Source of the DNA: Candidatus Moraniibacteriota bacterium
GTDB lineage: Bacteria > Patescibacteriota > Minisyncoccia > Moranbacterales > GCA-2747515
Length of the DNA: 64,000 bases
Direction: 5' to 3'
Assembly: GCA_046116545.1 (NCBI GenBank)
Contig: CP175956.1
Location: forward strand, 833,734-897,733
This document shows positions 1,248 through 32,051 of this stretch, piece after piece; within the stretch, counting starts at the first letter, position 1; each line of letters starts with the position of its first letter. The notes beneath the pieces are model-generated. The model did no database searches, was not told the origin of the DNA, and saw only the letters and a program-made list of their open reading frames with translations. The position numbers and the translations under genes were made by a program.

Positions 1248-1368
1248 TCCCCTCTCCCTCTGGGAGAGGGGCTAGGGGTGAGGGTTTAGAAATATAAACT
1301 TTTCAATTTCCAAACAAAAAACCCTCATCCGTCCTATCGGACACCTTCTCCCAAAAGGAGAAGGGATT
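1248..1368. repeat. Pair of GC-rich dispersed hairpin repeats (family B then family A, reverse orientation)
   Basis: cccctctccctctgggagaggggctaggggtgagggt is the reverse complement of the acccctcaccccaaccctctccc..gggagaggg units at 15106 and 20840. aaaaccctcatccgtcctatcggacaccttctcccaaaaggagaaggg is the reverse complement of the unit at 15220. Confidence 0.8.
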
Positions 1369-1488
1369 TATAATTTTTTCATAACTCTACATATACTATC
1401 ATATACAAAACATCTTGTCAGAGCAAGAAAAAATAAAAACCACCAGAACAGATTTATCTGTTCTGGTGGTACATGCTTTTCCTATGAA

Positions 1489-2790
1489 TTAATCAGATTT
1501 AACATCAGAAATATTCAGTGGTAATCCATCTCTTTTAAAAAGAATTAAATTACCTCTATTTTCCTGCCACTTTACAAAATCTGACAACTCTACTACATCA
1601 TCAAATGTTGCACCAGAAAAATCCATAATGCAATTAAATTCATCATCAACTTCAATTTCTGGAAAACATCCATGATTACCTTCAAAGAAAATTGCACTAT
1701 CTATAGTTACTTGTTTACCAAAGACAATATTGGAATCACGGTCGTGATTGTGACTACTACGGAAATGGATAGAGCCTATAGTTGCTGACACGAAATTAAG
1801 ATTATGAGCCTCTTCATGATTAACAATCACTTTTTCACAAAGTCCTCTCATATATAAATCACAAAAGCCATCTCCACAATAAAGCTTTTTGACTCTATCA
1901 AGATTTAGTTTTATGGTCATTGCACCAAAATTATCAAGATAAACTTCATTAGCTATAATTTTAGATGCTAATTCCAGAGTGCCAAAGGAAGCTGTTCCAA
2001 AATTAATATTGAAAATAATCCCTTCAGAAAATACCACTTTCTTCAAAATATTAAATGTTGCTGCATCAAAATCAATGCTACAATAACATTGATTAGAGGT
2101 TACAGACATAAAACTAGCTGAGCCAAAATTTATCTCTGGCACAAATTTTTGATCACCGACTCGCAGATTATTAATTACAATTTCAACATTTTCAAAATTT
2201 GCTGATTCAAAGAAAACATTGCAACTACAATTATTGATGACTACGGATCCTTCATAAAAGGCTGTCCCTAACCGAAGTTCTGATTTAACGTTTTCAACAT
2301 GAAATCCGTTATCAAAACATGTCTCCCCACAAATAAGCTTTGAGATTATCAATCCACGAAAATCAACTGTTGCATCAAACACCTTTTCAGGCATATTGAT
2401 TGTACCGATAATGTGAATTGGAGAGTTTTTGCGAAACTCATCAACCCGCGCTACATAACCATCACAAAATAACTCTGCAAAATCATGCTTATCAAAGCCT
2501 TCGTGACTTTCTAAATAAGTAACAAAGTGTTCAGCTTTCATGGTAATAACATCACTTGTTTTTTCGATCATCATATTCTCCTCAATCCCATTCAAGAGAC
2601 GTGTAGTTTCTTTTCGTACTAATTCCTGCATTCCGCGAGGAATTAATTTCTGAGCTTCTGCCTTTTTTAAACCATTTTTCAGATTTGCGAAAGTTTGTTT
2701 GGACTTACCCTGCTCAAGAGCAAGCACGCCCTTTAAAACATTCCGTAATAATTCAAGGGATGAATTATCAGGTTTCTCTAAGCGGTCCAT
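1489..2790 (-). CDS. Hypothetical repeat protein with ~20-residue periodic (I/M)(N/D)FGxA(S/T)F repeats, possible beta-solenoid
   Basis: 433-aa ORF. Motifs SANFENV, INFGSASF, IDFDAATF, INFGTASF, MDFSGATF recur about every 20-23 residues. No recognisable catalytic motif. Confidence 0.4.
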   Translation of the reverse strand: MDRLEKPDNSSLELLRNVLKGVLALEQGKSKQTFANLKNGLKKAEAQKLIPRGMQELVRKETTRLLNGIEENMMIEKTSDVITMKAEHFVTYLESHEGFDKHDFAELFCDGYVARVDEFRKNSPIHIIGTINMPEKVFDATVDFRGLIISKLICGETCFDNGFHVENVKSELRLGTAFYEGSVVINNCSCNVFFESANFENVEIVINNLRVGDQKFVPEINFGSASFMSVTSNQCYCSIDFDAATFNILKKVVFSEGIIFNINFGTASFGTLELASKIIANEVYLDNFGAMTIKLNLDRVKKLYCGDGFCDLYMRGLCEKVIVNHEEAHNLNFVSATIGSIHFRSSHNHDRDSNIVFGKQVTIDSAIFFEGNHGCFPEIEVDDEFNCIMDFSGATFDDVVELSDFVKWQENRGNLILFKRDGLPLNISDVKSD

Positions 2791-2949
2791 ACGGATCCTC
2801 CATTAGAAATAGTTTACGATTTGTCGTAATTGTCGTCTATACAGATCAACAAATTTCTTGAACATATCAAGAAAACGACTAAAAAATTGTTAAAATACTA
2901 ACTATAAATATTAGCATGTTTACGGCTTTTTGTCCATATCACAAAATGT

Positions 2950-3045
2950 ACATCCGCCCTCACGCCCATGCATAATACAACAACATCTCCCCATTTTTAA
3001 GGGGGAGATGTCCGATAGGACAGAGGGGGTTTTAGATTGTTTTTC
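2950..3045. repeat. GC-rich dispersed multi-hairpin repeat (family D)
   Basis: catctccccatttttaagggggagatg is a perfect hairpin. gtccgataggac is a second hairpin, followed by agagggggtttt. It is near-identical to the unit at 32002-32051. Confidence 0.8.
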
Positions 3046-3055
3046 AAAAAATAAA

Positions 3056-3096
3056 AGTCAGATTTATGTAATACATAAATCTGACTATCGTTGCAA
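3056..3096 (-). terminator. Rho-independent terminator hairpin directly 3' of the tRNA-like element (minus strand)
   Basis: agtcagatttatgta-ata-cataaatctgact is a perfect stem. On the minus strand it is followed by ttttatttttt. Confidence 0.6.
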
Positions 3097-3160
3097 GCAG
3101 TACGGGGATTGAACCCGCTAGGCTCTGACCTATGTGGGACCCACCTCACCACCGCCATCA
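3097..3160 (-). ncRNA. tRNA-like fragment (T-arm plus acceptor 3' strand) with no complete cloverleaf. Either a tRNA 3'-end remnant or a small RNA
   Basis: Minus strand reads ...GGTCAGAGCCTAGCGGGTTCAATCCCCGTACTGCTTGCA. GCGGG-TTCAATC-CCCGT is a canonical T stem-loop. No matching 5' acceptor strand, D-arm or anticodon arm was found. The ~63-nt element is followed immediately by a terminator. Confidence 0.3.
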
Positions 3161-3294
3161 AAAATTTCAATATTATTTAAAATCTTTGATGGCAGTAACT
3201 TTTGTACTAACTTTACCAACACTACAATATAGCATATTTTAACTACTTTGTCAAGGACTGTAATTACAAAAAATCACATGCTATAATATCAGTT

Positions 3295-4914
3295 ATGGAC
3301 ATTATTAGAAAACAAAAAAAGAATCCTTCTGTCTCCAAACTAAATTCCCGCCTCCGCGGGAATGACAGTGGTGGTAATTTTCATGATAATGACTCTTTGA
3401 ATGGTGCTTATTCTAATACCAATCATAATCGTACTCAAAAAATTCAGACTCTTGATGAATATTCAGAGATCAAACAATCTTCCGGTGTAGAGACGCGATT
3501 AATCGCGTCTCTGCCAAAAACTCGTAGCAAAAAGATTTTTTGGATTTCTTTGGTTCTTTTTATTTTAGCTATTTTATTTGCTGGTGGATTTTTTATTCAT
3601 AATACCAACAACACAATTAATCAAATAACTGATGGTGAAGAAAAACATTCTTTTATGAAAACTGTTTCTAATTTTGCTAATCCTCAATCTTACAAAGTTC
3701 TACATGGGTTTGATACTGGTCGGATAAATATTTTATTACTTGGTAGAGCAAATACTCACAAAAAGGGTGGCGACCTCACAGATACTATAATGCTAGCAAG
3801 TATAAATACTGAGGATTATACTGTTGGACTTTTTTCTATTCCTCGTGATTTTTTGGTCAGCAATGGAAGCTTTTATTCAAAGATAAATTCTCGTTATCAA
3901 ACAGGCCTCCGAAATGATAAAGGTGCAAAATACATCATCAATTCAGTTGAAAAAATAACTGATCAAAATGTAGATTATTATTTTGTACTTGACTTTGAAG
4001 GTTTCACAAAGATTGTTGATATGCTCGGAGGTATAAATGTAGACGTCCCTAAACATATCAAAGATGAACGATATCCTGGAGCAGGTTATACTTATGAAAC
4101 ATTTGAAGTTTATCCTGGGTTACAAAAATTTGATGGTACTACTGCACTTAAATATGCTCGTACTCGTCATGCTGATATCGAGGGAGACTTTGGACGAGCA
4201 AAAAGACAACAACAAGTCATGCAAGCTGCTCGCAACAAAGCATTTTCGCTTGGCACAATTATGAATCCTCTCAAAATAACTGAACTCCTAAATATACTTG
4301 GTGAACACGTTCACACAGATGTCACTCCTGATGAGATTGAACCTTTTATTTCTCTTATCAAAAAATTAGATACTCACAATATAAATAATGTTGTCCTTGA
4401 TGCTTGGAAGTCTGGCAGCTTACTTATCTCTGCTAGATATCATAATGCTCATGGAGGAATATCTGGATTAGTCCCTCGCTCAGGAACTTATGCTGAAATC
4501 CAAGACCAAGCTAAAAACTTATTTGACCTTGATAAAATAAAACAAAGACAAGACGAAATAGAAGATGAATCCCCTACTATTATACTTATCAATACGACAA
4601 GCAAAAATGTTATATCAGCTAGAGTCAAAACTGCTTTATTATCTCTAGGCTTTGATGACGTTATCATAAAAAGTAATAATTACAACACACAAAACAAAAC
4701 AACTATAATCGATAATACGGGGGGCATAAAAACTTTTTCACTTGATGAACTTATCAAAAAACTACCAGCAAAAAAAGACACCCAAGCAAAGACAAAATAT
4801 GAGGATACTGACTTTGTTATTTTGCTAGGAAGTGATATGGTTGATGCATATACATACACTGAAATTTCACAAGAGGAATTGGAAAGTGAAAATGCACAGA
4901 ACAATGATAAATAA
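3295..4914 (+). CDS. LytR-CpsA-Psr (LCP) family cell-envelope phosphotransferase
   Basis: N-terminal TM helix (IFWISLVLFILAILFAGGFFI). LCP core reads ILLLGRANTHKKGGDLTDTIMLASIN...GLFSIPRDFLV...VDYYFVLDFEGFTKIVDMLGGINVDV...YARTRH. Confidence 0.8.
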   Translation: MDIIRKQKKNPSVSKLNSRLRGNDSGGNFHDNDSLNGAYSNTNHNRTQKIQTLDEYSEIKQSSGVETRLIASLPKTRSKKIFWISLVLFILAILFAGGFFIHNTNNTINQITDGEEKHSFMKTVSNFANPQSYKVLHGFDTGRINILLLGRANTHKKGGDLTDTIMLASINTEDYTVGLFSIPRDFLVSNGSFYSKINSRYQTGLRNDKGAKYIINSVEKITDQNVDYYFVLDFEGFTKIVDMLGGINVDVPKHIKDERYPGAGYTYETFEVYPGLQKFDGTTALKYARTRHADIEGDFGRAKRQQQVMQAARNKAFSLGTIMNPLKITELLNILGEHVHTDVTPDEIEPFISLIKKLDTHNINNVVLDAWKSGSLLISARYHNAHGGISGLVPRSGTYAEIQDQAKNLFDLDKIKQRQDEIEDESPTIILINTTSKNVISARVKTALLSLGFDDVIIKSNNYNTQNKTTIIDNTGGIKTFSLDELIKKLPAKKDTQAKTKYEDTDFVILLGSDMVDAYTYTEISQEELESENAQNNDK

Positions 4915-4994
4915 ATTATTTGTAGTGACGCCCCTTGTGGGTGTCATACCAAAGGACAGGCACAAGACCTGTCCCTACCATAAAATACGAAAAT

Positions 4995-5528
4995 ATGAAA
5001 TTAATAATAGGCCTAGGAAACCCAGGCTCAGAATATGAAAAAACTAGACATAATGCAGGATTTATCCTTGTTGATGTCCTACAAAGTAATCATGAATTCT
5101 CTACATTCACATTAGATAAAAAATTTAATGCCCAGACATCTGAAGGATTTATTGATACTGAAAAATATATCCTTGTAAAACCTCAAACATTTATGAATCG
5201 TTCTGGCGAAAGCGTACGAGCAATAATTGATTTTTATAAAATTGACCCAGAAGATATAACCGTCGCAGCAGATGATCTAGACATAGAAATCGGTAATTAT
5301 AAAATCACACGAGATTCTCGAGCGGCAGGACACAATGGCATTCAAAATATAATAGATAATATTGGAACGCAAGACTTTACCCGCATTAAATTAGGTGTAG
5401 AGGTCTCAGGGGGTAGAAAAGAACGAGGAGAAATATCTGGACATAATTTTGTACTTCAGAACTTCTCATCTGATGAACTAACAACATTAGATACTGCTAT
5501 TAAAAATGCTTTAACAAATTTACAGTAG
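4995..5528 (+). CDS. pth: Peptidyl-tRNA hydrolase
   Basis: MKLIIGLGNPGSEYEKTRHNAGF is the Pth N-terminal signature. The track ORF starts at 4935; the internal ATG at 4995 fits the conserved N-terminus. A hairpin (ggacagg..cctgtcc) lies at 4958-4982. Confidence 0.9.
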   Translation: MKLIIGLGNPGSEYEKTRHNAGFILVDVLQSNHEFSTFTLDKKFNAQTSEGFIDTEKYILVKPQTFMNRSGESVRAIIDFYKIDPEDITVAADDLDIEIGNYKITRDSRAAGHNGIQNIIDNIGTQDFTRIKLGVEVSGGRKERGEISGHNFVLQNFSSDELTTLDTAIKNALTNLQ

Positions 5529-5546
5529 CCTCATTAATTGTATTTA

Positions 5547-5585
5547 TAATATTTCCAAAAAATTAAAAACCACTTGAACAATTTT
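5547..5585. terminator. Bidirectional intrinsic terminator between convergent pth and the lipoprotein gene
   Basis: aaaaccacttgaacaa-ttt-tgttcaagtggtttatttt: perfect stem flanked by an A-run and a T-run. Confidence 0.7.
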
Positions 5586-5596
5586 GTTCAAGTGGT

Positions 5597-6064
5597 TTAT
5601 TTTCGTGGTGTATCTTCATAGGCATCATATAAACAAAACAGTAAAAACAATCCATTATTAGTTTCTACTATTTCACTCATTTTAGCCCTTTCCTCTACAG
5701 AGTAAATACCATCATTATTTCCAGCCTTATCTCCAAGTGCTGCAAGGGCATCAGTAATATCATCTAATGCACTAGCAATATTTGTCCTTGATTGCCCTCC
5801 ATAGTATTTATTTGCAAAATTAATAATAATGCCTTCAATATCACTATTTGTAATTCTACAATATTCAGCAACATCATCAATATCTTCAAGTCCCTCAAAG
5901 CCATCAATGGACTCTAATATGCCATTGCTATAATTAGCTATTTGAGCGACACAGACAATGGAATCCAGTTCTTTGCCAGTAGGCATATTATTAGTACTAA
6001 TTTGTTCTTCATCACAAGCGCTAGTAAAAATTAGGAGCATGCACATGATAATTATATTTTTCAA
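5597..6064 (-). CDS. Hypothetical lipoprotein
   Basis: Signal peptide plus lipobox MKNIIIMCMLLIFTSAC. 155 aa, acidic. Confidence 0.4.
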   Translation of the reverse strand: MKNIIIMCMLLIFTSACDEEQISTNNMPTGKELDSIVCVAQIANYSNGILESIDGFEGLEDIDDVAEYCRITNSDIEGIIINFANKYYGGQSRTNIASALDDITDALAALGDKAGNNDGIYSVEERAKMSEIVETNNGLFLLFCLYDAYEDTPRK

Positions 6065-6654
6065 TGTACATGCCTCCTTTCCATACTAACTTTGTCCCGT
6101 ATGTCATCCAAATCAATGAATTCAATATTAGACAGCGCTGGTTTTGTTAGCTTAATGAGCTCTTTTGCAACTGCCTTTCTTGTGGATAATATTATTATCT
6201 TTTTTCCACAATTATTAGCCAGATCTTTTAAGACAGGCTCGTAATCACTATCGCCTGCGATAAATATCAGGACATCATATTCATCCTTGAATTTATGCAA
6301 TTCATATGCGATTTGAGCATCCATATCTCCTTTTTGAAATTCTCCTTTTTCTCCTTTGTTAATAGTTTTCAATGGTCGCTTTATAATAGTATAACCTATA
6401 TGTTCTTCCATTGTGTACCAAAATTTCTTTTGACTAGAAATTTTTTCCTCTCGCCCAACAAATTCCTCAGGGCTTTCATTTTCAGAAACTTCGCCCTCCA
6501 CTGGTGCACCTGTATAGAAACGCTTCAACCCAATTACAGAGTTGTCACATTGATTAAATTTGTTTAACAAAAAATTTGCCAACTCTTTATAATCAATTCT
6601 ATACTGTGTGTGAAAAACGTTTCCGCCATCAACAAAAATTGCGATGCGTAACAT
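6061..6654 (-). CDS. NYN-domain (LabA/DUF88-like, PIN-like) protein
   Basis: MLRIAIFVDGGNVFH...VLIFIAGDSDYEPVLKDL matches the NYN/LabA acidic-residue pattern. It overlaps the downstream lipoprotein gene by 4 nt (atga), suggesting an operon. Confidence 0.55.
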   Translation of the reverse strand: MLRIAIFVDGGNVFHTQYRIDYKELANFLLNKFNQCDNSVIGLKRFYTGAPVEGEVSENESPEEFVGREEKISSQKKFWYTMEEHIGYTIIKRPLKTINKGEKGEFQKGDMDAQIAYELHKFKDEYDVLIFIAGDSDYEPVLKDLANNCGKKIIILSTRKAVAKELIKLTKPALSNIEFIDLDDIRDKVSMERRHVH

Positions 6655-6974
6655 TGTTCATTCCTCCAAAATTTATATATATAAGTTAAAAAACTTTTTT
6701 AAAAAACAAATTGTTTCTAACCTCCTTTTTTACAAGAGATTGATACAACCACGATTCCGTCCACAGAAATAAATATCATATTATGAAATTCAACACGTTT
6801 ACGATATACAGGCAAGGAGGAGGAGCCTGAACACCACGCGCTGTGGACGAAATCCTAATTGTATACTAATCTAATTGTAATGATAAAGACTACCAAAAAT
6901 ACCCATTTTTGTCAATAAAAAAGTAAGCCTCCAAACTTAAATTTCAAAATTTACAATACCTATAATTAAAACCT

Positions 6975-7108
6975 TTGCCCCTTTTTAAGGGGAAAATGTC
7001 CAAAGGACAAAAGGGGGTTCACCACGAATATCTGTCAAATATAAATTGTAGAATTGATATGTAAAAAACTACCCCTCATTCCCCTCTTTAAAAAGTAAAT
7101 GGGGTTTG
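6975..7108. repeat. Pair of dispersed hairpin repeats (family A/D variant then family C)
   Basis: cccctttttaaggggaaaatgtccaaaggacaaaagggggtt, and ccctcattcccctctttaaaaagtaaatggggtttg. The latter is similar to the unit at 31871-31905. Confidence 0.75.
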
Positions 7109-7127
7109 CGCTAAACTACAAAAACAT

Positions 7128-8243: not shown

Positions 8244-8302
8244 AAGAATTAAAAAGTCGCTAGATATGATTACATATCCAACGACTTCGTGAACAAAGAA
8301 GT

Positions 8303-8482: not shown

Positions 8483-8499
8483 GACGCTTCTCCATTAAA

Positions 8500-8817: not shown

Positions 8818-8864
8818 AATTTTCTCCTTATGAGATTTTATTCTACTTAATAATTTTGAAACAC

Positions 8865-12361: not shown

Positions 12362-12551
12362 ACTGTAGTGGCGATCCCTTGTGGTCGCCATTTACAATAT
12401 TTACTGACACCTACAAGGGACATCACCACACAATGTCAAAATAAAGCCCAACCTACTGTCGACACTAGGCTGGATTTTGAATTATATCGAAAATAAAAAC
12501 CCAGTTTTCACATTGTAAAAACTGGGATTCATAATAAAAATTGAAACTTGT

Positions 12552-14627: not shown

Positions 14628-14748
14628 AATGACCTCCCTTCATTATTTTTATTGTTAAATTACTATGATATGTCACTATACTCCAAAACCCATAGATGTG
14701 CAATAATCCCATTCTCCCAATATTGGGAGAATGGATGAAGGTTTGAAG

Positions 14749-15096
14749 CTATACATTTTTTACAATTTCTTCAAGTTTCAAAAATATACTATCAATATTA
14801 TTATTTACATCATTATTCCAAAATCTCACAACATAGTAACCTTGTAATTCTAGATATTTTGTACGTTCATCATCCTTTTTGCCACAAAATTCTTCCTTGT
14901 GTTGCCATCCATCAATTTCAACAATCAACTTTTTATCAAAACATACAAAGTCAACAATATAATCTCCAATTGGATATTGTCTACGAAATTTCAGATCTAG
15001 AAATCTGCGATTACGCAATCTCGCCCACATCATTGTTTCTTGTGGTGTTTGTTTTTTGCGAAGATTTCTTGCCTTATTTGTATTTTTACTTTTCAT
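14749..15096 (-). CDS. DUF559 endonuclease-domain protein (Vsr/restriction-endonuclease-like fold)
   Basis: LRKKQTPQETMMWARLRNRRFLDLKFRRQYPIGDYIVDFVCFDKKLIVEIDGWQH is the classic DUF559 motif pattern. Confidence 0.75.
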   Translation of the reverse strand: MKSKNTNKARNLRKKQTPQETMMWARLRNRRFLDLKFRRQYPIGDYIVDFVCFDKKLIVEIDGWQHKEEFCGKKDDERTKYLELQGYYVVRFWNNDVNNNIDSIFLKLEEIVKNV

Positions 15097-15105
15097 AATT
15101 GTTTA

Positions 15106-15270
15106 ATTATACCAACCCCTCACCCCAACCCTCTCCCTTAAGGAGAGGGGGCTTTTATTACATTATAATACTAATACACCGCAATTCTAATAATTATTTC
15201 TATGAATTTTCACAACATCCCCTTCTCCTTTTGGGAGAAGGTGTCCAAAGGACGGATGAGGGTTTTTAGG
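15106..15270. repeat. Pair of dispersed hairpin repeats (family B then family A, forward orientation)
   Basis: acccctcaccccaaccctctcccttaaggagagggggctttt, and ccccttctccttttgggagaaggtgtccaaaggacggatgagggttttt. Confidence 0.8.
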
Positions 15271-15271
15271 C

Positions 15272-15940
15272 TTACAAAACTCTCATCACAGGTGCAAAAC
15301 TTTTTCTATGAATTGGAGTTGCTCCGTATTTTTGCAACGCTTCCATATGAATTTTTGTTCCATATCCTTTATGTCTGGAAAATTCATACTCTGGATAATC
15401 TTTATCATATTGTGATATTATTTTATCTCGAACTACTTTTGCTATCACAGATGCTGCTGCAATACTTTTTGATATACTATCCCCTTTTGCTACGCACACT
15501 TGTTCTCTTGTGAAATTTGGGATTAACTGATTTCCATCTATCATTACCATCATTTTTTCTGCATCTGCATACGCATTATTTTTATCAATATCTTTTTCCA
15601 GTGCTTCTACTGACTTTCTCATAGCAAGTAATGTTGCTTGTAAAATATTTATCTCATCAATCGCTTTTGGGCTACACTTTCCAATACCCACAAAGAACCT
15701 TTCCCGAACAAATTCAAAAACTTCTTCTCTTTGCTTTTCACTCAACAGTTTTGAATCTCTAACAAGTTTCCAACTTCCTTCATCTGTGACAACATCAAAA
15801 TCCTTAATATCTTTTATAACACAAGCAGCTGTGACAACTGGACCCGCCAAAGGACCTCTACCCACCTCATCAACTCCAGCTATAATATGATAACCATTTT
15901 CATATAACTTTTTTTCTTTTTCAAATGTTGCAATCTTCAT
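15272..15940 (-). CDS. rnhB: Ribonuclease HII
   Basis: HIIAGVDEVGRGPLAGPVVTAAC is the RNase HII active-site region. The start is taken at the internal MKIATF; the track ORF extends to 15994. Confidence 0.9.
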   Translation of the reverse strand: MKIATFEKEKKLYENGYHIIAGVDEVGRGPLAGPVVTAACVIKDIKDFDVVTDEGSWKLVRDSKLLSEKQREEVFEFVRERFFVGIGKCSPKAIDEINILQATLLAMRKSVEALEKDIDKNNAYADAEKMMVMIDGNQLIPNFTREQVCVAKGDSISKSIAAASVIAKVVRDKIISQYDKDYPEYEFSRHKGYGTKIHMEALQKYGATPIHRKSFAPVMRVL

Positions 15941-19644: not shown

Positions 19645-19684
19645 CAAAAAAAGTCTACTGTAGAATAATTTTCTACAGTAGACT
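19645..19684. terminator. Bidirectional intrinsic terminator between convergent dnaE and the 19703-20407 gene
   Basis: aaaaaagtctactgtagaa-taatt-ttctacagtagactt. Confidence 0.65.
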
Positions 19685-19702
19685 TACCACCTGATTGACT
19701 TA

Positions 19703-20757: not shown

Positions 20758-20880
20758 ACCTCTTCTCCTTTTGGGGGAAGGTGCCCGACAGGGCGGATGG
20801 GGGGACATGTCATCAAAAACTATATTGTTCAAAACAATAACCCCTCACCCCAACCCTCTCCCTATGGGAGAGGGCGTTTC
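20758..20880. repeat. Pair of dispersed hairpin repeats (family A variant then family B) inside the thrS leader region
   Basis: cctcttctccttttgggggaaggtgcccgacagggcggatggggggacatg, and cccctcaccccaaccctctccctatgggagagggcgtttc. Confidence 0.8.
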
Positions 20881-20903: not shown

Positions 20904-22667
20904 ATGTGTGGAGAACAAACAAAAGAAATTGACGTGAAGAGACACTCAGCAGCTCATATCCTTGCGATGGCTGTGCTTGATTTACACCCAGATGCTAAAC
21001 TTGGCATCGGACCAGTTATTGATGATGGATTTTATTATGACTTTGAGACCCAAAATCCTATCACAGAAGATGAACTCAAGAAAATTGAAAAAAAGATGAA
21101 GAAACTAATTTCACAAAATATTGATTTTGAGAAAAGTGAATTAGATATCGATGAAGCAAAAGCAAAATTTGAAGCTGATGGTCAAAAATATAAAGTTGAA
21201 ATTATAGATGATTTGAAAAAAGAAGGTGAAAAAACTATTTCAATTTATAAATCAAAAGATTTTGAAGATCTTTGTCGTGGACCTCATGTAGAAAATTCAA
21301 AAGAAATTAACGCCAAGGCACTCAAAATTACTAGACTAGCTGGAGCATATTGGAAAAGTGATGAAAATCGTGAACAACTAACTCGTATTTACGGTGTACT
21401 TTTTGAAACAAACGAAGAGCTTGCTGAATATAATCAAAGGCTAGTAGAAGCAAAAAAACGAGATCACAGAAAACTTGGTAAAGAATTAGATTTATTTACT
21501 TTTTCAGAGACTGTTGGAAGTGGATTGCCAATGTTAACAGAGAAAGGAGCTACGGTGCGAAGAGTGCTTGAAAGATTTATTGTGGATGAAGAACTACGTC
21601 GTGGATATAAACATGTTTATACACAAGATATTGCAAAAGTTGATCTTTATAAAAAATCTGGACATTATCCATATTACAAAGATTCGATGTACGCACCTAT
21701 AGAAATTGATGGCGAGCAATTCATGTTGCGTCCAATGACTTGTCCTCATCATTTCGAGTTATTTTTACGAAAGCCTCATAGTTATAGAGACTTGCCTGTG
21801 CGATATGCTGAACTTGCAAAACTTTATAGATATGAACAATCAGGCGAACTATCAGGACTTATGCGTGTGCGATCATTTACATTAGCTGATGCACATATAT
21901 TTTGTGCTGATGCTGAGCAAGCTGGTAGCGAAATATCCAAAGCGTTGGATTTAATTGATTTCATAGCAGAAAAATTTGGATTAAAAATGGGAGAAGACTA
22001 TTGGTATACACTAGCATTGGGAGATAGAACCGATGAAAAGAAATACTACAAAGATGATGCTGCATGGGACACTGCCGAAGATGTATTGCGAAATATATTA
22101 GAAAATAGAAATTGTCATTTCACAGAAGAAATAAATGGAGCTGCATTTTATGGTCCTAAAATAGACATCCAAATGAAAAATGTTTCTGGGAAGGAAGATA
22201 CTGCATTCACTGTTCAATATGACTTTGTAATGCCTAAACGATTTGACCTAAATTATACAAATGAATCTGGTGAAAAACAAGAAACTATTGTTGTGCACAG
22301 ATCTTCAATTGGAGCGCTCGAAAGAATTATGGCATTTCTCATCGAACATTATGCAGGCGCATTTCCACTATGGCTCTCCCCTGTTCAAGCTGTTGTAATA
22401 CCAGTATCTGACAAATTTAATGATTATGGTCAAAGTGTAGTAGAACGTCTACAGCAAGAAGGTTTCCGTGCTGAGCTAGATAATGACTCCGAGACGCTTG
22501 GAAAGCGTATACGAGTCGCTCAGAAAGCAAAGACACCTTATATGCTAGTAGTTGGTGAAAAAGAAGTGACTGATACTACTGTTGCCGTACGTTCACGTGA
22601 TAATGGCGATGAAGGAGTTATAAGTATTGATGATTTTGTTGAAAAAATGAAAGAAGAAATCAACTAG
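20904..22667 (+). CDS. thrS: Threonyl-tRNA synthetase (short form without N-terminal TGS domain)
   Basis: HSAAHILAMAV (editing-domain-like start), class II core FMLRPMTCPHHFELF...RVRSFTLADAHIF, and a C-terminal anticodon-binding domain. Confidence 0.9.
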   Translation: MCGEQTKEIDVKRHSAAHILAMAVLDLHPDAKLGIGPVIDDGFYYDFETQNPITEDELKKIEKKMKKLISQNIDFEKSELDIDEAKAKFEADGQKYKVEIIDDLKKEGEKTISIYKSKDFEDLCRGPHVENSKEINAKALKITRLAGAYWKSDENREQLTRIYGVLFETNEELAEYNQRLVEAKKRDHRKLGKELDLFTFSETVGSGLPMLTEKGATVRRVLERFIVDEELRRGYKHVYTQDIAKVDLYKKSGHYPYYKDSMYAPIEIDGEQFMLRPMTCPHHFELFLRKPHSYRDLPVRYAELAKLYRYEQSGELSGLMRVRSFTLADAHIFCADAEQAGSEISKALDLIDFIAEKFGLKMGEDYWYTLALGDRTDEKKYYKDDAAWDTAEDVLRNILENRNCHFTEEINGAAFYGPKIDIQMKNVSGKEDTAFTVQYDFVMPKRFDLNYTNESGEKQETIVVHRSSIGALERIMAFLIEHYAGAFPLWLSPVQAVVIPVSDKFNDYGQSVVERLQQEGFRAELDNDSETLGKRIRVAQKAKTPYMLVVGEKEVTDTTVAVRSRDNGDEGVISIDDFVEKMKEEIN

Positions 22668-22771: not shown

Positions 22772-22832
22772 CTAAAAAAATTAAAAGACAGTATCATTGT
22801 GATACTGTCTTTTGCTTTTGTGTCATTCATCT

Positions 22833-23999: not shown

Positions 24000-24113
24000 A
24001 TATACACCTATTCGAATCCTATTACTCCAACCAATTTTTTACAAATAAAAAAAGTGATAACAAATGTTCTTGTTATCACTTTATAGAAAATACAATCAAA
24101 AGACTATACTTTA

Positions 24114-25810: not shown

Positions 25811-25839
25811 CAAAACCACTCTTACATAAGAGTGGTTTT
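25811..25839 (-). terminator. Intrinsic terminator after gatB
   Basis: aaaaccactcttacataagagtggttttt: perfect stem with flanking A/T runs. Confidence 0.55.
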
Positions 25840-25861
25840 TAAAATAAATCCAAAAATTAGG

Positions 25862-27334: not shown

Positions 27335-27355
27335 GTTATTGCTATTACAAACTAA

Positions 27356-27721
27356 TTATCTATTATCACCATCTCCATGTATTTTATTCCTCATCAATCT
27401 ACTTTGTGTCTTTTTGATATTACCCTCTGCGACATCATCCAAATTCAGATTTAATTCTGTAGCCAGCTGTGCAATATACCAGAGAACGTCTCCCAACTCC
27501 TTTGCAATCTCTGCACGTGTTTCATCATTTATTTTCCCACCTTTATCCCTAATAACTTTTTTAATTTTTTCTGCCACCTCGCCTGTTTCACCCGCAATTC
27601 CCAAAACTGGAAAAATAAAGTTGTTATCCTTATCTGGATAAACTGCATGTTTGCGTGTTTTCTTTTGATACTCACTAAACTTCATAATACTTTTAATCTT
27701 TATATTATCTACCTTATTCAA
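27356..27721 (-). CDS. MazG-like nucleoside triphosphate pyrophosphohydrolase (all-alpha NTP-PPase)
   Basis: FSEYQKKTRKHAVYP...LGIAGETGEVAEKIKKVIRDKGG...ELGDVLWYIAQLATELNLNLDDV is the MazG/dimeric-dUTPase-superfamily EExxE/D pattern. Confidence 0.75.
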   Translation of the reverse strand: MNKVDNIKIKSIMKFSEYQKKTRKHAVYPDKDNNFIFPVLGIAGETGEVAEKIKKVIRDKGGKINDETRAEIAKELGDVLWYIAQLATELNLNLDDVAEGNIKKTQSRLMRNKIHGDGDNR

Positions 27722-27727
27722 CTAATT

Positions 27728-28153
27728 TTATTTAAGCCCTGTGCTACCAAATCCACCGTCACCTCTTTGTGTCTCATCAAGTTCATCTACTTCTTCTATA
27801 ATAGGACATTCTACCCTTTGAATCAACATTTGTGCTATCTTATCTCCTTTATTTATTTTATAATCTTTTTTGGACAAATTTCTTATGATAACACCAATTT
27901 CACCACGATAATTACTATCAATTACACCACCCATTGTTTTAAGACCACCTTTAAAAGCAATGCCACTCTTATCCCAAATAAGCCCTACAAATCCGTCAGG
28001 GATTGCCATACTAATCCCAGTTTGACATGCTACTATGTCTCCAGGACTTAACACGATATCCTCAATAGAATATAACTCCATTGCAGCATCTCCTTCAATA
28101 GTATATTGTGGTAATTTTGCTTCTGGATTAATCTTTTTTATTTTAATATTCAT
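27728..28153 (-). CDS. dut: dUTP diphosphatase (trimeric dUTPase)
   Basis: AMELYS, GLIWDKSG, GVIDSNYRGEIGVIIRN and GDKIAQ are dUTPase motifs. Confidence 0.9.
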   Translation of the reverse strand: MNIKIKKINPEAKLPQYTIEGDAAMELYSIEDIVLSPGDIVACQTGISMAIPDGFVGLIWDKSGIAFKGGLKTMGGVIDSNYRGEIGVIIRNLSKKDYKINKGDKIAQMLIQRVECPIIEEVDELDETQRGDGGFGSTGLK

Positions 28154-28247
28154 ACTTTTAAAAATTCATTAACTATACTAGTCTATCAAATTCAAAGGAA
28201 AATTAAAAGACCCTATCTTTGTTAAGATAAGGTCTTTGCAAGCTAAT

Positions 28248-29615
28248 TTATACCATCCGACGAGGAAAATAATCTCCATCATTCCTCAGTCTAATATCAC
28301 GCCCGCAGTAGCGATCACCTTCAGCACACTTTCCAAGCTCAAAGCAAGGTGGCTGAAACATCGCTAGGAGGTCTGAATTAATGCCACATTTTTTAGCAAC
28401 AGCTTCACGTTCCAAAACACCTAGATAATAAATTTCTTCTTGAGCACACCAGCAAAGCCTCTTGTACTGTTCATGCAAAATAGCATTAAAGGAGCCTTTT
28501 TTAATATACTCTACAACAGCACCATATGGTGCAAGTATCATTGCAAGAGTCCCTGGAACAGTTTTTTCAATTGAAATCCATTGACTCATAAGGTCACGCG
28601 CTCTACCTCCCAATCCTAATTTTTGCACTATTGGTGGTAAATAAAATGCACCTGTGAATTGTGGAGCACCTCTACGAATTGTACGATGTCTTTGATCTTG
28701 TCCCATAGTTGCCACTGACATTCCGACACATACCTCTATATCGCCAATAGAATTATTCATCATCTCTGGTGCAAAATGTGATTTATCAACTGGATGCATG
28801 ACGTCAGCATTTGGTTGCACAAAAACATGTTCATTTTGAACATTGCATGAAAAAATATATGGCTCAGTTGCAATCTCAATATCACTGTGTGATGGAGGCT
28901 GAACAAACCAATCGCCTTCACGACGTCTACTTTCATCAAATACATATGCAATATCTGGATATTTCTGAGAAAATGCACCTGCAATCTTTGCCGTAACATC
29001 CTTCATTGCTGGCGTCCACGCTTCTTCATACATCGCAACAAGAGCTGTGAGATTTAATGTAAAATCTAAAGCTGTTGGAAAAATGGTTGAAATAAACATG
29101 CGCAGTTGCTCCTGAGCAACCTTTGGCGCAATTTGTGCAACCATTTTATTCGCTATAAATGGACGTTCTTGTCGCAAAAAATCTGCAGCAATTTTATTTG
29201 CTTCAGATTTATTTTCCTGATAAATCTTCACGCCAAACTCTAAGTAACGTTCTATCTCCACAAGATCTCTTGATGATACCTGTGGCCAATACACACGAAC
29301 ATACTGCATCATTTTATCAAAGTCAGGCTCCGTAAACATCTTTGCAGCATATCGTCCACTCCGTTGGTCTGTGTTATAAAATGGACTTACTAGATGTAGT
29401 CCAAAAGTTACATCCCCAACAGCAATGCCATCAATACTATTTGTTCTATAAGCATCAGAATGTTGCATCGTTGTATGATGTGAAACACGGAACAACCTAT
29501 TTTCAACATCAATTTCTTTACCAACTTTTGGCACTGTCGATTGATAACATTGCAACGCAGCATGCGAAGCCGATTGTGTTGGCGTCATGTCTGGTAACAT
29601 TTCTACTTTAATCAT
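28248..29615 (-). CDS. thyX: Flavin-dependent thymidylate synthase ThyX-like; apparent tandem-fused (pseudo-dimeric) form
   Basis: 455 aa, about twice a typical ThyX. The N-half has HHTTMQH...FYNTDQRSGRY, which resembles the ThyX SxRY end of the RHRx7SxRY signature but lacks RHR. The C-half has ATMGQDQRHRTIRRG and CAQEEIYYLGVL, which resemble the ThyX RHR motif and AQWEI helix. GC is higher than in neighbouring genes. Confidence 0.5.
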   Translation of the reverse strand: MIKVEMLPDMTPTQSASHAALQCYQSTVPKVGKEIDVENRLFRVSHHTTMQHSDAYRTNSIDGIAVGDVTFGLHLVSPFYNTDQRSGRYAAKMFTEPDFDKMMQYVRVYWPQVSSRDLVEIERYLEFGVKIYQENKSEANKIAADFLRQERPFIANKMVAQIAPKVAQEQLRMFISTIFPTALDFTLNLTALVAMYEEAWTPAMKDVTAKIAGAFSQKYPDIAYVFDESRRREGDWFVQPPSHSDIEIATEPYIFSCNVQNEHVFVQPNADVMHPVDKSHFAPEMMNNSIGDIEVCVGMSVATMGQDQRHRTIRRGAPQFTGAFYLPPIVQKLGLGGRARDLMSQWISIEKTVPGTLAMILAPYGAVVEYIKKGSFNAILHEQYKRLCWCAQEEIYYLGVLEREAVAKKCGINSDLLAMFQPPCFELGKCAEGDRYCGRDIRLRNDGDYFPRRMV

Positions 29616-29631
29616 CTTTTACCACCTCCAA

Positions 29632-29895
29632 TTAAATTTGTTTGAGAAAAACTCTAAATTCAGAAACTTTTTCTTCAAATTTTTTGTATGTATGTTCCAT
29701 TTCTCTCTTTGCACACGTATCACATTTGTAATCCGCAAACCGTGGACAATTACAAAATGAACAAATAACCACTTGAAATTCTTTTGTTCCACCTTTTTTA
29801 CAAATGACTCCAATTAATTGAAGACCTTCTTTTTCTGCCCCGTCCTTAGATTCTTGACTAACAGTCTCTGGAATTGTCCATTTTTTATCACCCAC
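29632..29895 (-). CDS. Small Cys-rich zinc-ribbon-like protein immediately upstream of thyX-like gene
   Basis: VICSFCNCPRFADYKCDTCAK gives a CxxCxC...CxxC pattern. 87 aa. Confidence 0.4.
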   Translation of the reverse strand: MGDKKWTIPETVSQESKDGAEKEGLQLIGVICKKGGTKEFQVVICSFCNCPRFADYKCDTCAKREMEHTYKKFEEKVSEFRVFLKQI

Positions 29896-29963
29896 AATTC
29901 TTCCTCCACTTATAATTTAATAATGTAAAATTAATATACAAAACTGTATTATTATGAGTTTAT

Positions 29964-30055
29964 GTTAAAAAACAAAAAAACTAGTATCTTACTAGTTTCT
30001 AAACTATTGCATCTTACAGTTCTTTAGTCAACCAAAAAATAAAAACTAACCAAAT
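29964..30055 (-). terminator. Two tandem intrinsic terminators after the dNMP-kinase / dCMP-deaminase genes
   Basis: aaactagtatcttactagttt and aaactaaccaaatgttagttt hairpins. On the minus strand each is followed by a T-run. Confidence 0.55.
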
Positions 30056-30114
30056 GTTAGTTTTTAAATATCACATCTATTGCAACATCAATCAATGATT
30101 ATTAATCATATCAT

Positions 30115-30672
30115 TTAACACACTTTTTTTGAATCAACTAGATCATCAACTTGCTTATGTAATTCTTCAACACTTCCACTATTATTTATAATGACATCAG
30201 CAAACTCTTTTAATCCTTTAACTTGTGCTTCTGATTCATTTTTGCTTTCTGCCTCAAATTCTTCAAATGTTTTATTTTGATCATCTACATTTTCACTTCT
30301 TTGAATAATTCTTTCATATCTTGTTCTAATATCAACATCTATATAAACAAGCTTAAATTCTGGCAATTCTTTTAAATATTTTATATCATCCATACGGCGA
30401 ACACCGTCAATTACAATGATTTCAGCAGCATCACTTTTTGCATCCTCAGCCATTACTCTTGCCATCGTATCTTCTCCATAAGTTTGACGAAGCATTGTTG
30501 AGAGATTTTGCAAGTTATCACGAGAATTTTCCAAATGCAATCTATCAAGAACATCTCTAAGCATTGTAGAAAAACGATGTTGTGAAGTGTCACATTTTTC
30601 ATTTAAATATTCTGATACTGTTCCTTTACCACTTGCCATTTCTCCTGCAAGTCCCAAAACCATTCTTGTCAT
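30115..30672 (-). CDS. P-loop deoxynucleoside monophosphate kinase, phage T4 gp1-like (paralog A)
   Basis: LGLAGEMASGKGTVSEYL P-loop and C-terminal INNSGSVEELHKQVDDL resemble T4 dNMP kinase (SGKDT ... NDGSLEEL). It is paralogous to the 31206-31778 gene, with a shared FEEFEAES segment. Confidence 0.55.
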   Translation of the reverse strand: MTRMVLGLAGEMASGKGTVSEYLNEKCDTSQHRFSTMLRDVLDRLHLENSRDNLQNLSTMLRQTYGEDTMARVMAEDAKSDAAEIIVIDGVRRMDDIKYLKELPEFKLVYIDVDIRTRYERIIQRSENVDDQNKTFEEFEAESKNESEAQVKGLKEFADVIINNSGSVEELHKQVDDLVDSKKVC

Positions 30673-30690
30673 TTTTTTGATATTATAAAA

Positions 30691-31182
30691 TTATTTATCA
30701 ATCTTCTTTAACTCAATTCTATTTTGTGGTTCATATTGTCTCAACTTTATACCAGCTGTCTCAAGCATTTTTCTAGCTATTTTAAATATATCAATATTTG
30801 CATACTTATCCGAAACATAAATAACTTCTTTCACACCACTTTGGATAATTATTTTTGCACATTCATTACAAGGAAATAGACTTACATAAAGCCTGCAACC
30901 ACTTACATTATCATTTGCATTCATGATAGCATTTGCCTCAGCATGAACTACATAAGCATATTTTGATTCAGATGTCTCACCATCTCTGCACCAAGGTAAA
31001 TCATCATCATGACAGCCTCTAGGAAATCCATTATATCCAAGTCCTACTACAACATTTTCATTATTCACAATGCAAGACCCGACCTGAGTTGAAGGATCTT
31101 TTGAACGCATAGCTATGAGATTACTCATAAGTACAAATGTCTCATCCCAATCAAGATATTCTTGCCTTTTATCATTTTTCAT
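30691..31182 (-). CDS. dCMP deaminase (ComEB-type cytidine/deoxycytidylate deaminase)
   Basis: Zinc-binding HAEANAIMNA and LFPCNECAKIIIQSGVKEVIYVSD. The N-terminus reads WDETFVLMSNLIAMRSKDPSTQVGSCIV. Confidence 0.8.
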   Translation of the reverse strand: MKNDKRQEYLDWDETFVLMSNLIAMRSKDPSTQVGSCIVNNENVVVGLGYNGFPRGCHDDDLPWCRDGETSESKYAYVVHAEANAIMNANDNVSGCRLYVSLFPCNECAKIIIQSGVKEVIYVSDKYANIDIFKIARKMLETAGIKLRQYEPQNRIELKKIDK

Positions 31183-31205
31183 AATAATGTTTTATTCTAT
31201 CAACC

Positions 31206-31778
31206 TTAATTACAACGTTTTTTTTGCAAAATATTTTTCATAGCATCATCAACTTGCCACAACAAATCATCCATGGATCCATCATTTTTTACAGTAAAAT
31301 CAGCATCTTTTCCAATTACTGGAATTGCCTTTTCTGTTTCTGATTCTGCTTCAAATTTTTTAAATTCATCGAAAGTCTGATCATCATCGCTCTTTTCACC
31401 ACGGCTAGTAACTCGTTTCCATCTCAACTCTTGATCAGCTGTTACATATATAATATAACTATCTTCAAATGATCTTATGAATTCAAGATCCATCATCATA
31501 CGCATACCATTAACACACATAATACCATGATGTTGATGTACATACCTCAATACACCTTTATGCAAAACATCTTCTCCAAAACGATCTTTAAACATACTAT
31601 ACAACCATGCTTGGTCTTCTTTTGAAGATTTATCAAAAAACAAATCCAATGTTTTTTTAAGTGGCATCCCAAATCGTAATAAATCAACATCGTATCGACG
31701 TTTCAAATAATGTGCAACTGTATCTTTCCCACTTCCAGTCTCCCCTACTAATCCAATGATGATTTTTTCATTATACAT
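31206..31778 (-). CDS. P-loop deoxynucleoside monophosphate kinase, phage T4 gp1-like (paralog B)
   Basis: IIGLVGETGSGKDTVAHYL closely matches the T4 gp1 FLSGVKRSGKDTTADFI. The C-terminal TVKNDGSMDDLLWQV matches ITNDGSLEELFSKI. Confidence 0.55.
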   Translation of the reverse strand: MYNEKIIIGLVGETGSGKDTVAHYLKRRYDVDLLRFGMPLKKTLDLFFDKSSKEDQAWLYSMFKDRFGEDVLHKGVLRYVHQHHGIMCVNGMRMMMDLEFIRSFEDSYIIYVTADQELRWKRVTSRGEKSDDDQTFDEFKKFEAESETEKAIPVIGKDADFTVKNDGSMDDLLWQVDDAMKNILQKKRCN

Positions 31779-31870
31779 ATAACTATTTTGTAGAAACTAA
31801 CTTTTTACTTATAAATTATATAGCAAAATTTGTGGAGTTGCAAGTTAAGAATATCCTAAACAAATAACCA

Positions 31871-31905
31871 CCCCTCAATCCCCTCTTTAAAAAGGAGTGG
31901 AGGTA
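31871..31905. repeat. Dispersed hairpin repeat (family C)
   Basis: cccctcaatcccctctttaaaaaggagtggagg, similar to the unit at 7073-7108. Confidence 0.7.
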
Positions 31906-31910
31906 AAAAC

Positions 31911-31970
31911 TAAACTAAACTAAACTAAACTAAACTAAACTAAACTAAACTAAACTAAACTAAACTAAAC
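31911..31970. repeat. Pentanucleotide microsatellite (TAAAC)12
   Basis: Twelve perfect tandem copies of taaac, plus one degenerate copy upstream. The repeat lies upstream of the minus-strand dNMP kinase gene and downstream of rplA. Confidence 0.95.
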
Positions 31971-32001
31971 AGAATTAAGCTTAAGTTAAATTAATAATAC
32001 A

Positions 32002-32051
32002 TCCTCTCCACCTTTTTAAGGGGGAGATGTCCGAAGGACAGAGGGGGTTTT
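32002..32051. repeat. Dispersed multi-hairpin repeat (family D)
   Basis: cctctccacctttttaagggggagatgtccgaaggacagagggggtttt, near-identical to the unit at 2994-3044. Confidence 0.8.

Follow-up and report, generated by a model that had tools for sequence, protein, structure and literature searches.

BoxC-type mirror repeats, with a hairpin-linked variant, in a Moraniibacteriota genome and their recurrent association with a DUF559 endonuclease gene

In a 64,000-nucleotide (nt) stretch of the genome of Candidatus Moraniibacteriota bacterium (contig CP175956.1, positions 833,734 to 897,733; called the window below), 11 GC-rich elements lie at six intergenic sites between 1 and 32 kb, and a twelfth, degenerate copy adjoins a gene for a DUF559 (YcjD-type) protein. 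The elements very probably belong to the BoxC/PIT/TMECO class of intrastrand-triplex repeats, which has been known in Escherichia coli since the 1990s, forms triplexes in vitro and marks variable regions of the E. coli genome, and whose function, origin and spread have not been established. The class extends to low-GC, small-genome bacteria of candidate phyla with a sequence nearly as in E. coli, and one of its forms in the window is a widespread hairpin-linked variant. The finding is mostly ordinary in kind, being a known repeat class with a new variant, a new host range and a reproducible gene association; more interesting than the variant or the host range is the association, in which the repeats are wrapped around a DUF559 gene and the repeat load of E. 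coli strains tracks the presence of that gene. It makes the question of what BoxC-type repeats are directly testable.

A preliminary description of this DNA had distinguished two families of multi-hairpin repeats, A and B. Two forms do exist, and the motifs given for them hold, but the families are not unrelated, both being linker versions of one design made of a hairpin and a mirror third strand. All window copies of both families have the same order of blocks on one strand, namely a pyrimidine tract (Y), a loop, a purine tract (R), a linker and a second purine tract (H), an order of class II. H is the reverse of R, the purine arm of the hairpin, and not its complement, and an A of R is sometimes answered by T. 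The third strand of a purine-motif triple helix follows the rule G·G-C, A·A-T and T·A-T; since H mirrors R, it can lie antiparallel on R in these triads.

Family A reads CCTTCTCC-TTTT-GGGAGAAGG / T / GTCC-GAWA-GGAC / GGATGAGGG-TTTT, with a second subtype ATCTCCCC-loop-GGGGGAGAT / GTCC..GGAC / AGAGGGGG-TTTT. The reverse complement of family B reads CCCTCTCC-TTAAG-GGAGAGGG / TT(G) / GGGGTGAGGGG-TT; this is the classical short-linker form, whose 3-nt linker family A swaps for T plus a mini-hairpin of 4-5 bp, which in the window is GTCC-(GATA/AAA/GAA)-GGAC and in one copy a compensatory version of it (Table 1). In predictions of DNA folding, Y pairs with R and the mini-hairpin with itself, leaving H single-stranded, and in doublets H can alternatively pair with the C-rich H' of the partner. 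The folding tools model Watson-Crick pairs only, and custom counts rather than a covariance model were used for the R/H mirror relation because it is not of the Watson-Crick kind and cannot be expressed in such a model. An attenuator-like hairpin of H with Y was rejected as a general rule: it fits only near-self-mirror sequences such as CCCTCTCCC and fails for TCTCCCCC/AGAGGGGG, with two mismatches and two G.U pairs in 8. A three-way junction, with an outer stem between H and the 5' flank CATCC, occurs in a few copies only and is not general either.

The copies listed in the preliminary description were all present within a few bases, and one more, the degenerate copy at 14708-14741, had been overlooked. 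A generic finder that required no more than Y, R and a mirror H (8 nt, up to one mismatch in each) returned nine clusters in the window, where 100 shuffles gave 0.13 on average and never more than 2; eight of the nine clusters were real copies. The family-A core pattern gave four matches against 0.00 expected. As had been proposed, every copy falls between open reading frames (ORFs) of 100 aa or more. In a window of 34% G+C, the copies rank with the sharpest GC islands outside genes and tRNAs. The adjacent pairs noticed earlier are borne out as well, five of the six sites being inverted doublets of an A-type with a B- or C-type element, and each pair being inverted. A degenerate C-rich, H'-like stretch lies at 2954-2967, near the A-type copy at 2985-3033. 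No copy was found past 32.1 kb in the window.

BoxC was reportedly described by Bachellier in the 1990s, and PIT, it is said, by Hoyne and Maher in 2000. The E. coli element BoxC was rediscovered by the latter as PIT (potential intrastrand triplex) and then renamed TMECO (Holder et al. 2015, PMC4666352). Its consensus, CCCTCNCCC-N3-6-GGGNGAGGG-N3-GGGNGAGGG, describes a class II purine-motif intrastrand triplex, which an oligonucleotide was found to form in vitro by circular dichroism and nuclear magnetic resonance (NMR); the element has 3610 copies in 262 proteobacterial genomes, is always intergenic without strand bias, is associated with locally variable DNA, and at 5 of 18 loci in strain K-12 forms inverted doublets that always join both linker types, type A and type B (PMC4666352).

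Family B matches the E. coli element directly and is therefore a member of the class. The preliminary description had taken the repeats to be dispersed, and they do recur far beyond the window: the family B 44-mer matched 5398 of 5426 complete E. coli genomes at a median of 15 places, the identity reaching 95.5% over 80% of the query, and family A was met in many phyla (see below). Family B aligns with the BoxC/TMECO pair, as the E. coli example CCCTCACCCCggCCCTCTCCCacaGGGAGAGGG ... CCCCTCGCCCCtttGGGGAGAGGGttaGGGTGAGGGG against the window sequence CCCCTCACCCCaaCCCTCTCCCtatGGGAGAGGG illustrates, and fits the TMECO consensus if the stem register shifts by one base. Compared with that consensus, 1249-1284 has 10-nt stems and the loops TCT and CTA, and the second loop of 15116-15151 and 20841-20874 is TT or TTG. 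Family A lies outside the consensus, with stems CCTTCTCC or TCTCCCCC and a second loop of 12-13 nt; this exceeds the limits of 1-6 nt and 0-10 nt set in two published surveys (PMC4666352), so that the variant could not be detected by the published search definitions and the censuses undercount the class. A text search of the literature for family-A core DNA strings and the peptide GEMSGRTEGG returned nothing relevant.

The window elements and BoxC/PIT/TMECO share the order Y-loop-R-loop-H with H mirroring R, near-identical core words (CCCTCTCCC / GGGAGAGGG / GGGGTGAGGG), a strictly intergenic, multi-copy occurrence that is patchy between related lineages, and inverted doublets with two linker types. 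They differ in that the host here belongs to the Patescibacteria, with about 34% GC, whereas the published census covered proteobacterial genomes; in the 12-13 nt linker of family A, which is a covarying mini-hairpin; and in the link to DUF559, Holder et al. mentioning no ycjD, DUF559 or endonuclease (PMC4666352). With H-DNA, formed by mirror repeats of the homopurine/homopyrimidine kind, the elements have in common the mirror symmetry of purine tracts and the triad rules of the purine motif. Unlike in H-DNA, all three strands here lie on one DNA strand as hairpin plus tail, and folding therefore needs single-stranded DNA and not supercoil-driven extrusion from a duplex.

We then scanned a genome collection with the family-A core pattern, in which R was left unconstrained, so that the relation of R to H is an unbiased test of the design. 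The scan returned 53 stretches in genomes of many phyla, about four of which lack the design and are chance matches. The hosts include metagenome-assembled genomes (MAGs) of Moraniibacteriota and Parcubacteria, Anaerolineales/Chloroflexi, Bacteroidota (Pedobacter, Chitinophaga, Roseivirga), a Heliobacteriaceae MAG (Firmicutes), Legionella, Rhizobium, Mesorhizobium and other Alphaproteobacteria, and the G+C content of the loci ranges from 31% to 68%. Among 41 distinct cross-phylum copies, H position 1 and its R partner were G/G in 20, A/A in 19 and otherwise in 2; position 4 was T/A in 13 and G/G in 22, and position 6 A/A in 12 and G/G in 23. The linker stem covaries too (GTCC/GGAC, GCCC/GGGC, GCCCC/GGGGC, GCTGC/GCAGC, GTCAC/GTGAC, CCGC/GCGG, GGCC/GGCC), and the top of the first hairpin tolerates long insertions. 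Family A is a widespread hairpin-linked variant of the class.

The covariation also bears on the proposal that an intramolecular G-quadruplex (G4) arises from the G-runs of R and H, as part of a G4/hairpin/duplex switch that regulates neighbouring genes. A model of this kind was put forward for the E. coli element (bioRxiv 10.1101/032615), and family B and E. coli BoxC do have four tracts of G3 or longer (GGGAGAGGG-TT-GGGGTGAGGGG). However, the family A subtype GGGGGAGA...AGAGGGGG has two G-runs (G5) only, and the subtype GGAGAAGG...GGATGAGG has mixed GG/GGG without four G3 tracts and is conserved across phyla all the same. A G4 does not predict covariation that follows the mirror position by position, A/A and T/A columns included, and the NMR of TMECO showed a triplex and not a G4 (PMC4666352). 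As a general design the G4 was rejected, its motif occurring in family B and not in family A, and we regard a regulatory G4 switch as extremely improbable.

The distribution looks patchy and horizontal, a reading suggested by identical copies amid genes that do not align and by the few motifs found in relatives. The copy at 32002-32051 is 100% identical over 50 nt to one in another Moraniibacteriota MAG, where the genes do not align, and the 35 nt at 15233-15267 recur with 100% identity in a copy from an alphaproteobacterium of 68% G+C. The A+B doublet of window positions 20759-20874 also occurs on a replicon of Xanthomonas sacchari. Between the window and the fetched repeat loci nothing aligned except thrS, at 67% to a Moraniibacteriota MAG. 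Only four real motifs were found in 1.2 Mb of DnaE loci of relatives; the best DnaE relatives in metagenomes have 57-65% aa identity and are without the repeats, and contigs with proteins identical to those of the window are the same strain, at 99.9% identity. Since no close relative other than the same strain was available, E. coli was used for the comparison of empty and filled sites.

The gene bracketed by repeats in the window encodes a 115-aa Vsr-like protein of the PD-(D/E)XK fold (Table 1). A family profile built around it matched PDB entry 3HRL (E 1.6e-37) and, with E 1.2e-5, PDB entry 3R3P, the catalytic domain of the homing endonuclease I-Bth0305I. Residues D49, E60, D62 and H66 of the window protein do not vary among seven homologs from diverse phyla. 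E. coli YcjD has long been predicted to be a Vsr-like PD-(D/E)XK nuclease and detects Vsr in profile searches (PMC1189080; also PMC3384342); the window protein is not its equivalog, scoring 103 bits against a cut-off of 218 with NCBIfam NF007294. With the EDxHD homing endonucleases (I-Bth0305I) and Vsr it shares the match to 3R3P and the invariant acidic and His residues; it differs from I-Bth0305I in being a free-standing protein of about 115 aa without the N-terminal DNA-binding region and in not residing in introns or inteins. A marginal DpdF match (E 0.0017), the only one to the PADLOC defence models, was disregarded.

The DUF559 protein was the only protein of the window to recur in the loci fetched through the repeats (tblastn, all fetched loci), and in an iterative search of six-frame ORFs of the 1.7 Mb fetched its homologs abutted triplex motifs at nine of nine loci, that of E. 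coli ycjD among them. In most loci an element oriented like the gene ends 3-20 nt before the ATG, so close that its G-rich strand looks like a ribosome-binding site, and an inverted element begins 3-10 nt past the stop codon or overlaps it. In the 1.2 Mb ascertained through DnaE, the sole DUF559 gene (locus L100) is flanked by the sole four real motifs. An independent sample of 70 DUF559 loci from viral contigs, fetched by protein pattern alone, held 30 motifs in the 51.7 kb lying no more than 250 nt from the gene and 11 in the other 215.6 kb, an 11-fold enrichment near the gene. Of its closest homologs 12 of 20 were motif-positive, 7 of them on both sides in inverted orientation, and most other close homologs have the Y-R...H design with a hairpin linker of 30-45 nt, which is outside the reach of the finder. 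A DUF559 nuclease gene is thus recurrently bracketed by the elements. Among the listed papers that mention DUF559, no title or abstract opening connects it with these repeats.

Two of the loci show the gene in decay. The DUF559 copies beside repeats in L038 and L015 are frameshifted pseudogenes, and a paralog, L008, from the same Anaerolineales MAG as L038 is intact; amid intact repeats, the pseudogenes indicate that the nuclease gene decays while the flanking repeats stay. A DUF559 gene in L023 (6800-7700) and L034 (Chloroflexi contig JACRBL010000029) has around it at least four copies of a larger unit, spaced 157-577 nt. Each unit contains a double-sided element, composed of a C-rich H', a hairpin with a 51-nt loop, the mini-hairpin and a G-rich H, in which a single hairpin can serve the triplex motif on either strand.

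It was predicted beforehand, and then found, that the E. coli DUF559 gene ycjD adjoins BoxC: its stop codon lies in the loop of CCCTCTCCC-TGAAA-GAGCGAGGG, and TMECO no. 9 of Holder's Table 1 is located 170 nt downstream. Between this stop-codon hairpin and TMECO no. 9, in the fabI-ycjD spacer of K-12 (NC_000913.3), a stretch of about 23 nt from the 3' coding end of ycjD (GAATATTCTCCAGCACCGTCTCC) is duplicated (L138, 1838-1860 vs 1943-1965), which resembles a scar left by a second DUF559 unit or by a rearranged one. The gene is single-copy and was found in 3378 of 5426 E. coli genomes; at the fabI-sapF site ycjD is carried by phylogroups A, B1 and C and eefRABCD by B2/D/E/F/G (PMC12817139).

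To compare strains with and without the gene we used a composite ycjD+TMECO query, sampled evenly down the ranking. The number of TMECO places was a median of 15 (range 9-24) in 37 ycjD-positive chromosomes versus 3.5 (1-13) in 22 ycjD-negative ones (Mann-Whitney p = 2e-9, uncorrected for phylogeny), with about 12 in O157-like and 1-4 in B2-like strains. The contrast agrees with the counts of Holder et al. for strains 55989, K-12 and IHE3034, which belong to phylogroups B1, A and B2, respectively. Those counts are 29, 23 and 1, with none in Salmonella (PMC4666352). The elements are polymorphic insertions or deletions: the hrpB-mrcB site holds a doublet in K-12 and is cleanly empty in a B2 strain, and in a third strain (07_3337; L216 vs L213) a 64-nt deletion between two GGGAGAGGG repeats has turned a doublet into a single hairpin, which matches the 'palindrome effect' of Holder et al. 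(PMC4666352).

As the overall explanation we favour, on balance, BoxC-class triplex repeats with DUF559 as their cognate partner, and a real functional link between repeats and DUF559 is in itself reasonably probable. In such a partnership the purine (G-rich) strand would adopt the hairpin with its third strand only in DNA that is single-stranded for a short time, for instance while being replicated, repaired or transcribed, and the elements would be selfish, horizontally spreading repeats rather than transcription signals. DUF559, related to Vsr and the EDxHD enzymes, would be the cognate enzyme by analogy with RAYT and REP; it may nick or cut at or near the structured element, and repair of the break, or copying, would then propagate or maintain both the ORF-containing unit and the ORF-less doublets. 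Propagation driven by the nuclease, as a specific mechanism, is a distinctly more tentative proposal than the link itself. A composite version can be entertained with slightly less reserve, in which the repeats, the hairpin-linked variant included, are non-autonomous partners of a dedicated Vsr-like DUF559 endonuclease that recognises folded single-stranded DNA (a hairpin with a third strand) and have passed by horizontal transfer from Patescibacteria to Proteobacteria. The ORF-less doublets whose tails point inward might be derivatives or targets of the DUF559 unit; three such pairs (1249-1365, 6975-7104 and 20759-20874) have the same geometry, with a spacer of 30-50 nt where the unit has its ORF. 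Were this true, the elements would form a second repeat-plus-nuclease system of the REP/RAYT kind, mechanistically different from the first, a 30-year-old orphan repeat family would be explained, and DUF559/YcjD, a very common domain, would be given a role.

That the repeats are REP/BOX-like, as the preliminary description had it, proved right as to their general kind. With REP/BIME and REPIN elements and their RAYT (TnpA-REP, Y1) proteins they have in common that short structured intergenic repeats form inverted doublets, that a single-copy gene of nuclease type has inverted copies of the repeat on its flanks, that this gene is outnumbered by ORF-less copies, and that copies outlast its loss. 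They differ in that no copy has a GTAG (or CGTC) tag or a GTAG-tagged palindrome, that the partner protein is a Vsr-like PD-(D/E)XK and not a Y1/HUH protein, and that the repeat carries a mirror third strand. Miniature inverted-repeat transposable elements (such as Correia/NEMIS and ERIC) are alike in being small (120-180 bp), ORF-less, intergenic, strain-polymorphic units with inverted ends, next to terminators and promoters. Unlike these, the present elements have self-folding, triplex-type ends instead of simple terminal inverted repeats, showed no clear target-site duplication at the one site compared (hrpB-mrcB), and have no associated transposase of a known family; Pfam detected no transposase family among the 10 repeat-flanking genes of the window.

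Several observations weigh against a partnership of repeats and nuclease. The evidence from this genome is one DUF559 gene in 64 kb, and we know of no DUF559 protein for which nuclease activity, binding or transposition has been shown. Distant DUF559 homologs in the 70-locus sample were without motifs, and the orientation of the flanks varies, the tails pointing inward in most loci, outward in L142 and differently in L100. The E. coli comparison is confounded by phylogroup, and ycjD-negative, O157-like lineages still keep 10-13 copies, so that the gene is not needed for their persistence. At the one empty/filled site (hrpB-mrcB) neither a target-site duplication nor defined ends were seen, the borders being fuzzy. 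TMECO gave no in vivo footprint with dimethyl sulfate, the duplex competes with the triplex, and earlier tests found no effect on polymerase in vivo and none on conjugation (PMC4666352 and work summarised there). Finally, tight flanking could arise just as well if a nuclease gene homes into pre-existing repeats.

This last point leads to the main rival, which we consider unlikely, though less so than the other alternatives: the repeats would spread or persist by another route, such as template switching, recombination or horizontal transfer, and DUF559 would be a homing-type gene that uses the doublet spacer as a landing pad. The DUF559 gene does sit between inverted elements just where ORF-less pairs have their spacer, its family profile is homologous to a homing endonuclease, ycjD is a single-copy accessory gene that replaced an operon at one fixed site, and repeats persist in ycjD-negative lineages. 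On the other hand, a homing gene would be expected at several of its targets, and DUF559 is single-copy in spite of tens of potential target doublets per genome. Repeat counts are also higher where the gene is present, and start and stop codons are built into the elements, with a G-rich, SD-like (Shine-Dalgarno-like) strand preceding the ATG and the stop codon placed in a loop or in H', an integration that suggests long co-evolution.

It is less probable still that the repeats are passive relics, GC-rich palindromic debris kept symmetric by mutational template switching, and that their link to DUF559 reflects shared transferred islands. No function was found in the published tests (PMC4666352), many copies are degenerate (the C-type ones, 6975-7019 and 14708-14741), and in E. 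coli a pair was seen to have collapsed through a deletion between its repeats. Relics of this sort do not account for a near-identical sequence with strict mirror and hairpin covariation in genomes of 33% to 70% GC from at least six phyla, for a compensatory change from A-T to C-G between the orthologous Anaerolineales copies L030 and L038, or for a DUF559 flanking that is tight (3-20 nt from start or stop) and recurs in independent samples. The partnership of repeats and DUF559 remains the explanation we prefer.

The preliminary description had further suggested that each repeat ends in a G-rich stem plus T-run and could act as a terminator or attenuator. Neither suggestion was upheld. DNA folding places the T-run after the unpaired H and not after a stem, so that 8-9 nt separate the stems from the T-run, which is unlike an intrinsic terminator, as is the inconsistent orientation. 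The genes of the window end in long, A/T-rich perfect hairpins with T-runs (Table 1), three of which (1439-1470, 3056-3086 and 32064-32092) stand directly beside repeat copies, while the repeat hairpins are weak matches in the terminator scan, their strands and positions being at odds with the gene ends. On the folding, the terminator scan and the negative published assays, termination was rejected as the main function.

An RNA-level function of any kind, whether as intrinsic terminators and attenuators or as REP-like 3' structures that stabilise mRNA, is very improbable. The GC-rich hairpins are often followed by T-runs, the weak scan matches include 15129-15149, 1344-1364 and 20854-20874 (all on the + strand), and several of the copies are located in 5' leaders or separate tandem genes; yet both orientations occur at each kind of site, every pair is inverted, and RNA secondary structure offers no explanation for an R/H covariation that is mirror-like and non-complementary. 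Moreover, purine-motif triplexes cannot form in RNA (PMC4666352, citing earlier work), and E. coli PIT elements had neither promoter nor terminator activity in an earlier study by the Maher group (summarised in PMC4666352).

Table 1. Repeat copies, the DUF559 gene and canonical terminators of the window; the strand of a repeat copy is that of its purine-motif orientation
Feature	Position	Strand	Remarks
B-type motif	1249-1284	+	Y CCCCTCTCCC, loop TCT, R GGGAGAGGGG, linker CTA, H GGGGTGAGGG; left half of tails-inward pair
A-type, hairpin-linked	1316-1365	-	CCTTCTCC-TTTT-GGGAGAAGG, T, GTCC-GATA-GGAC, H GGATGAGGG, T-run; right half, pair with 1249-1284
A-type, subtype ATCTCCCC / GGGGGAGAT / AGAGGGGG	2985-3033	+	
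A-type, degenerate (GCCCC / GGGGAAAA / AAAAGGGGG)	6975-7019	+	
C-type, decayed or deleted B-like motif (...GAGGGGAATGAGGGG)	7072-7104	-	Inverted partner of 6975-7019
A-type, degenerate, without mini-hairpin (ATTCTCCC-AATAT-GGGAGAAT-GGATGAAGG)	14708-14741	+	Opposite in orientation to the DUF559 gene, whose stop codon is 7 nt from the H end
DUF559 (Vsr-like / PD-(D/E)XK-fold) endonuclease gene, 115 aa	14749-15096	-	Pfam PF04480, E 2.2e-39, above cut-off
B-type, same orientation as DUF559 gene	15116-15151	-	H GGGGTGAGGGG ends 20 nt upstream of DUF559 start codon
A-type	15219-15267	+	Outer inverted partner of 15116-15151
A-type, compensatory mini-hairpin GCCC-GACA-GGGC, G.T wobble in Y/R stem	20759-20804	+	
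B-type	20841-20874	-	Inverted partner of 20759-20804; 30 nt upstream of thrS
C-type, degenerate B-like	31871-31903	-	
A-type	32002-32051	+	50/50 nt identical to copy in Moraniibacteriota MAG (L031)
Canonical terminators	1439-1470, 3056-3086, 5567-5598, 8253-8288, 12500-12526		
Canonical terminators, continued	19651-19685, 22782-22814, 24051-24082, 28206-28237, 32064-32092		

Of the six sites, three separate divergent genes, two separate tandem genes and one follows the 3' end of a gene. The genes flanking them encode LCP, DprA, ThrRS, RNase HII, L1, NYN and DUF559 proteins according to Pfam, which agrees with what had been guessed for LCP, dprA and thrS. The elements also generate spurious Pro/Gly-rich ORFs, as noticed earlier; the ORF at 2930-3112 runs across the element at 2985-3033 and reads ...KGEMSDRTEGV... 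through it, and annotation pipelines should mask ORFs of this type (e.g. the GEMSDRTEG-type peptide). Rfam returned only tRNAs for the whole window at the gathering threshold, and no family in E-value scans of 15080-15300 and 3030-3300.

Upstream of LCP, the stretch 3050-3165 consists of a strong terminator-like hairpin (3056-3086, - strand) followed by a GC-rich part with a word resembling a tRNA T-arm (GGGGATTGAACCCGC, - strand); this could represent a fragment of a tRNA or a small RNA not yet described, ARAGORN and Rfam giving no match. The ThrRS gene (20904-22667) encodes only 587 aa, and Pfam detected no TGS domain in the product. In the Moraniibacteriota relative L051 a lone A-type element, oriented the other way, is likewise located about 100 nt upstream of thrS. 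A (CTAAA)12 microsatellite at 31910-31969 separates the two elements of the 31871-32051 doublet and is length-polymorphic, with 9 units at the same locus in L002, the strains being otherwise 99.9% identical.

The half of the window that contains all the repeat copies also has a dense cluster of genes for nucleotide metabolism (27.3-31.8 kb and 13.6-14.3 kb). These genes encode MazG, a protein of the dCTP deaminase/dUTPase family, a faint ThyX-like match, a dCMP deaminase and two P-loop kinases (AAA_17/AAA_18), one of which has a faint match to deoxynucleotide-monophosphate kinase (DNMK). A gene with a Phage_30_3 domain adjoins the DUF559 unit, and the nucleotide-metabolism cluster may be phage-derived.

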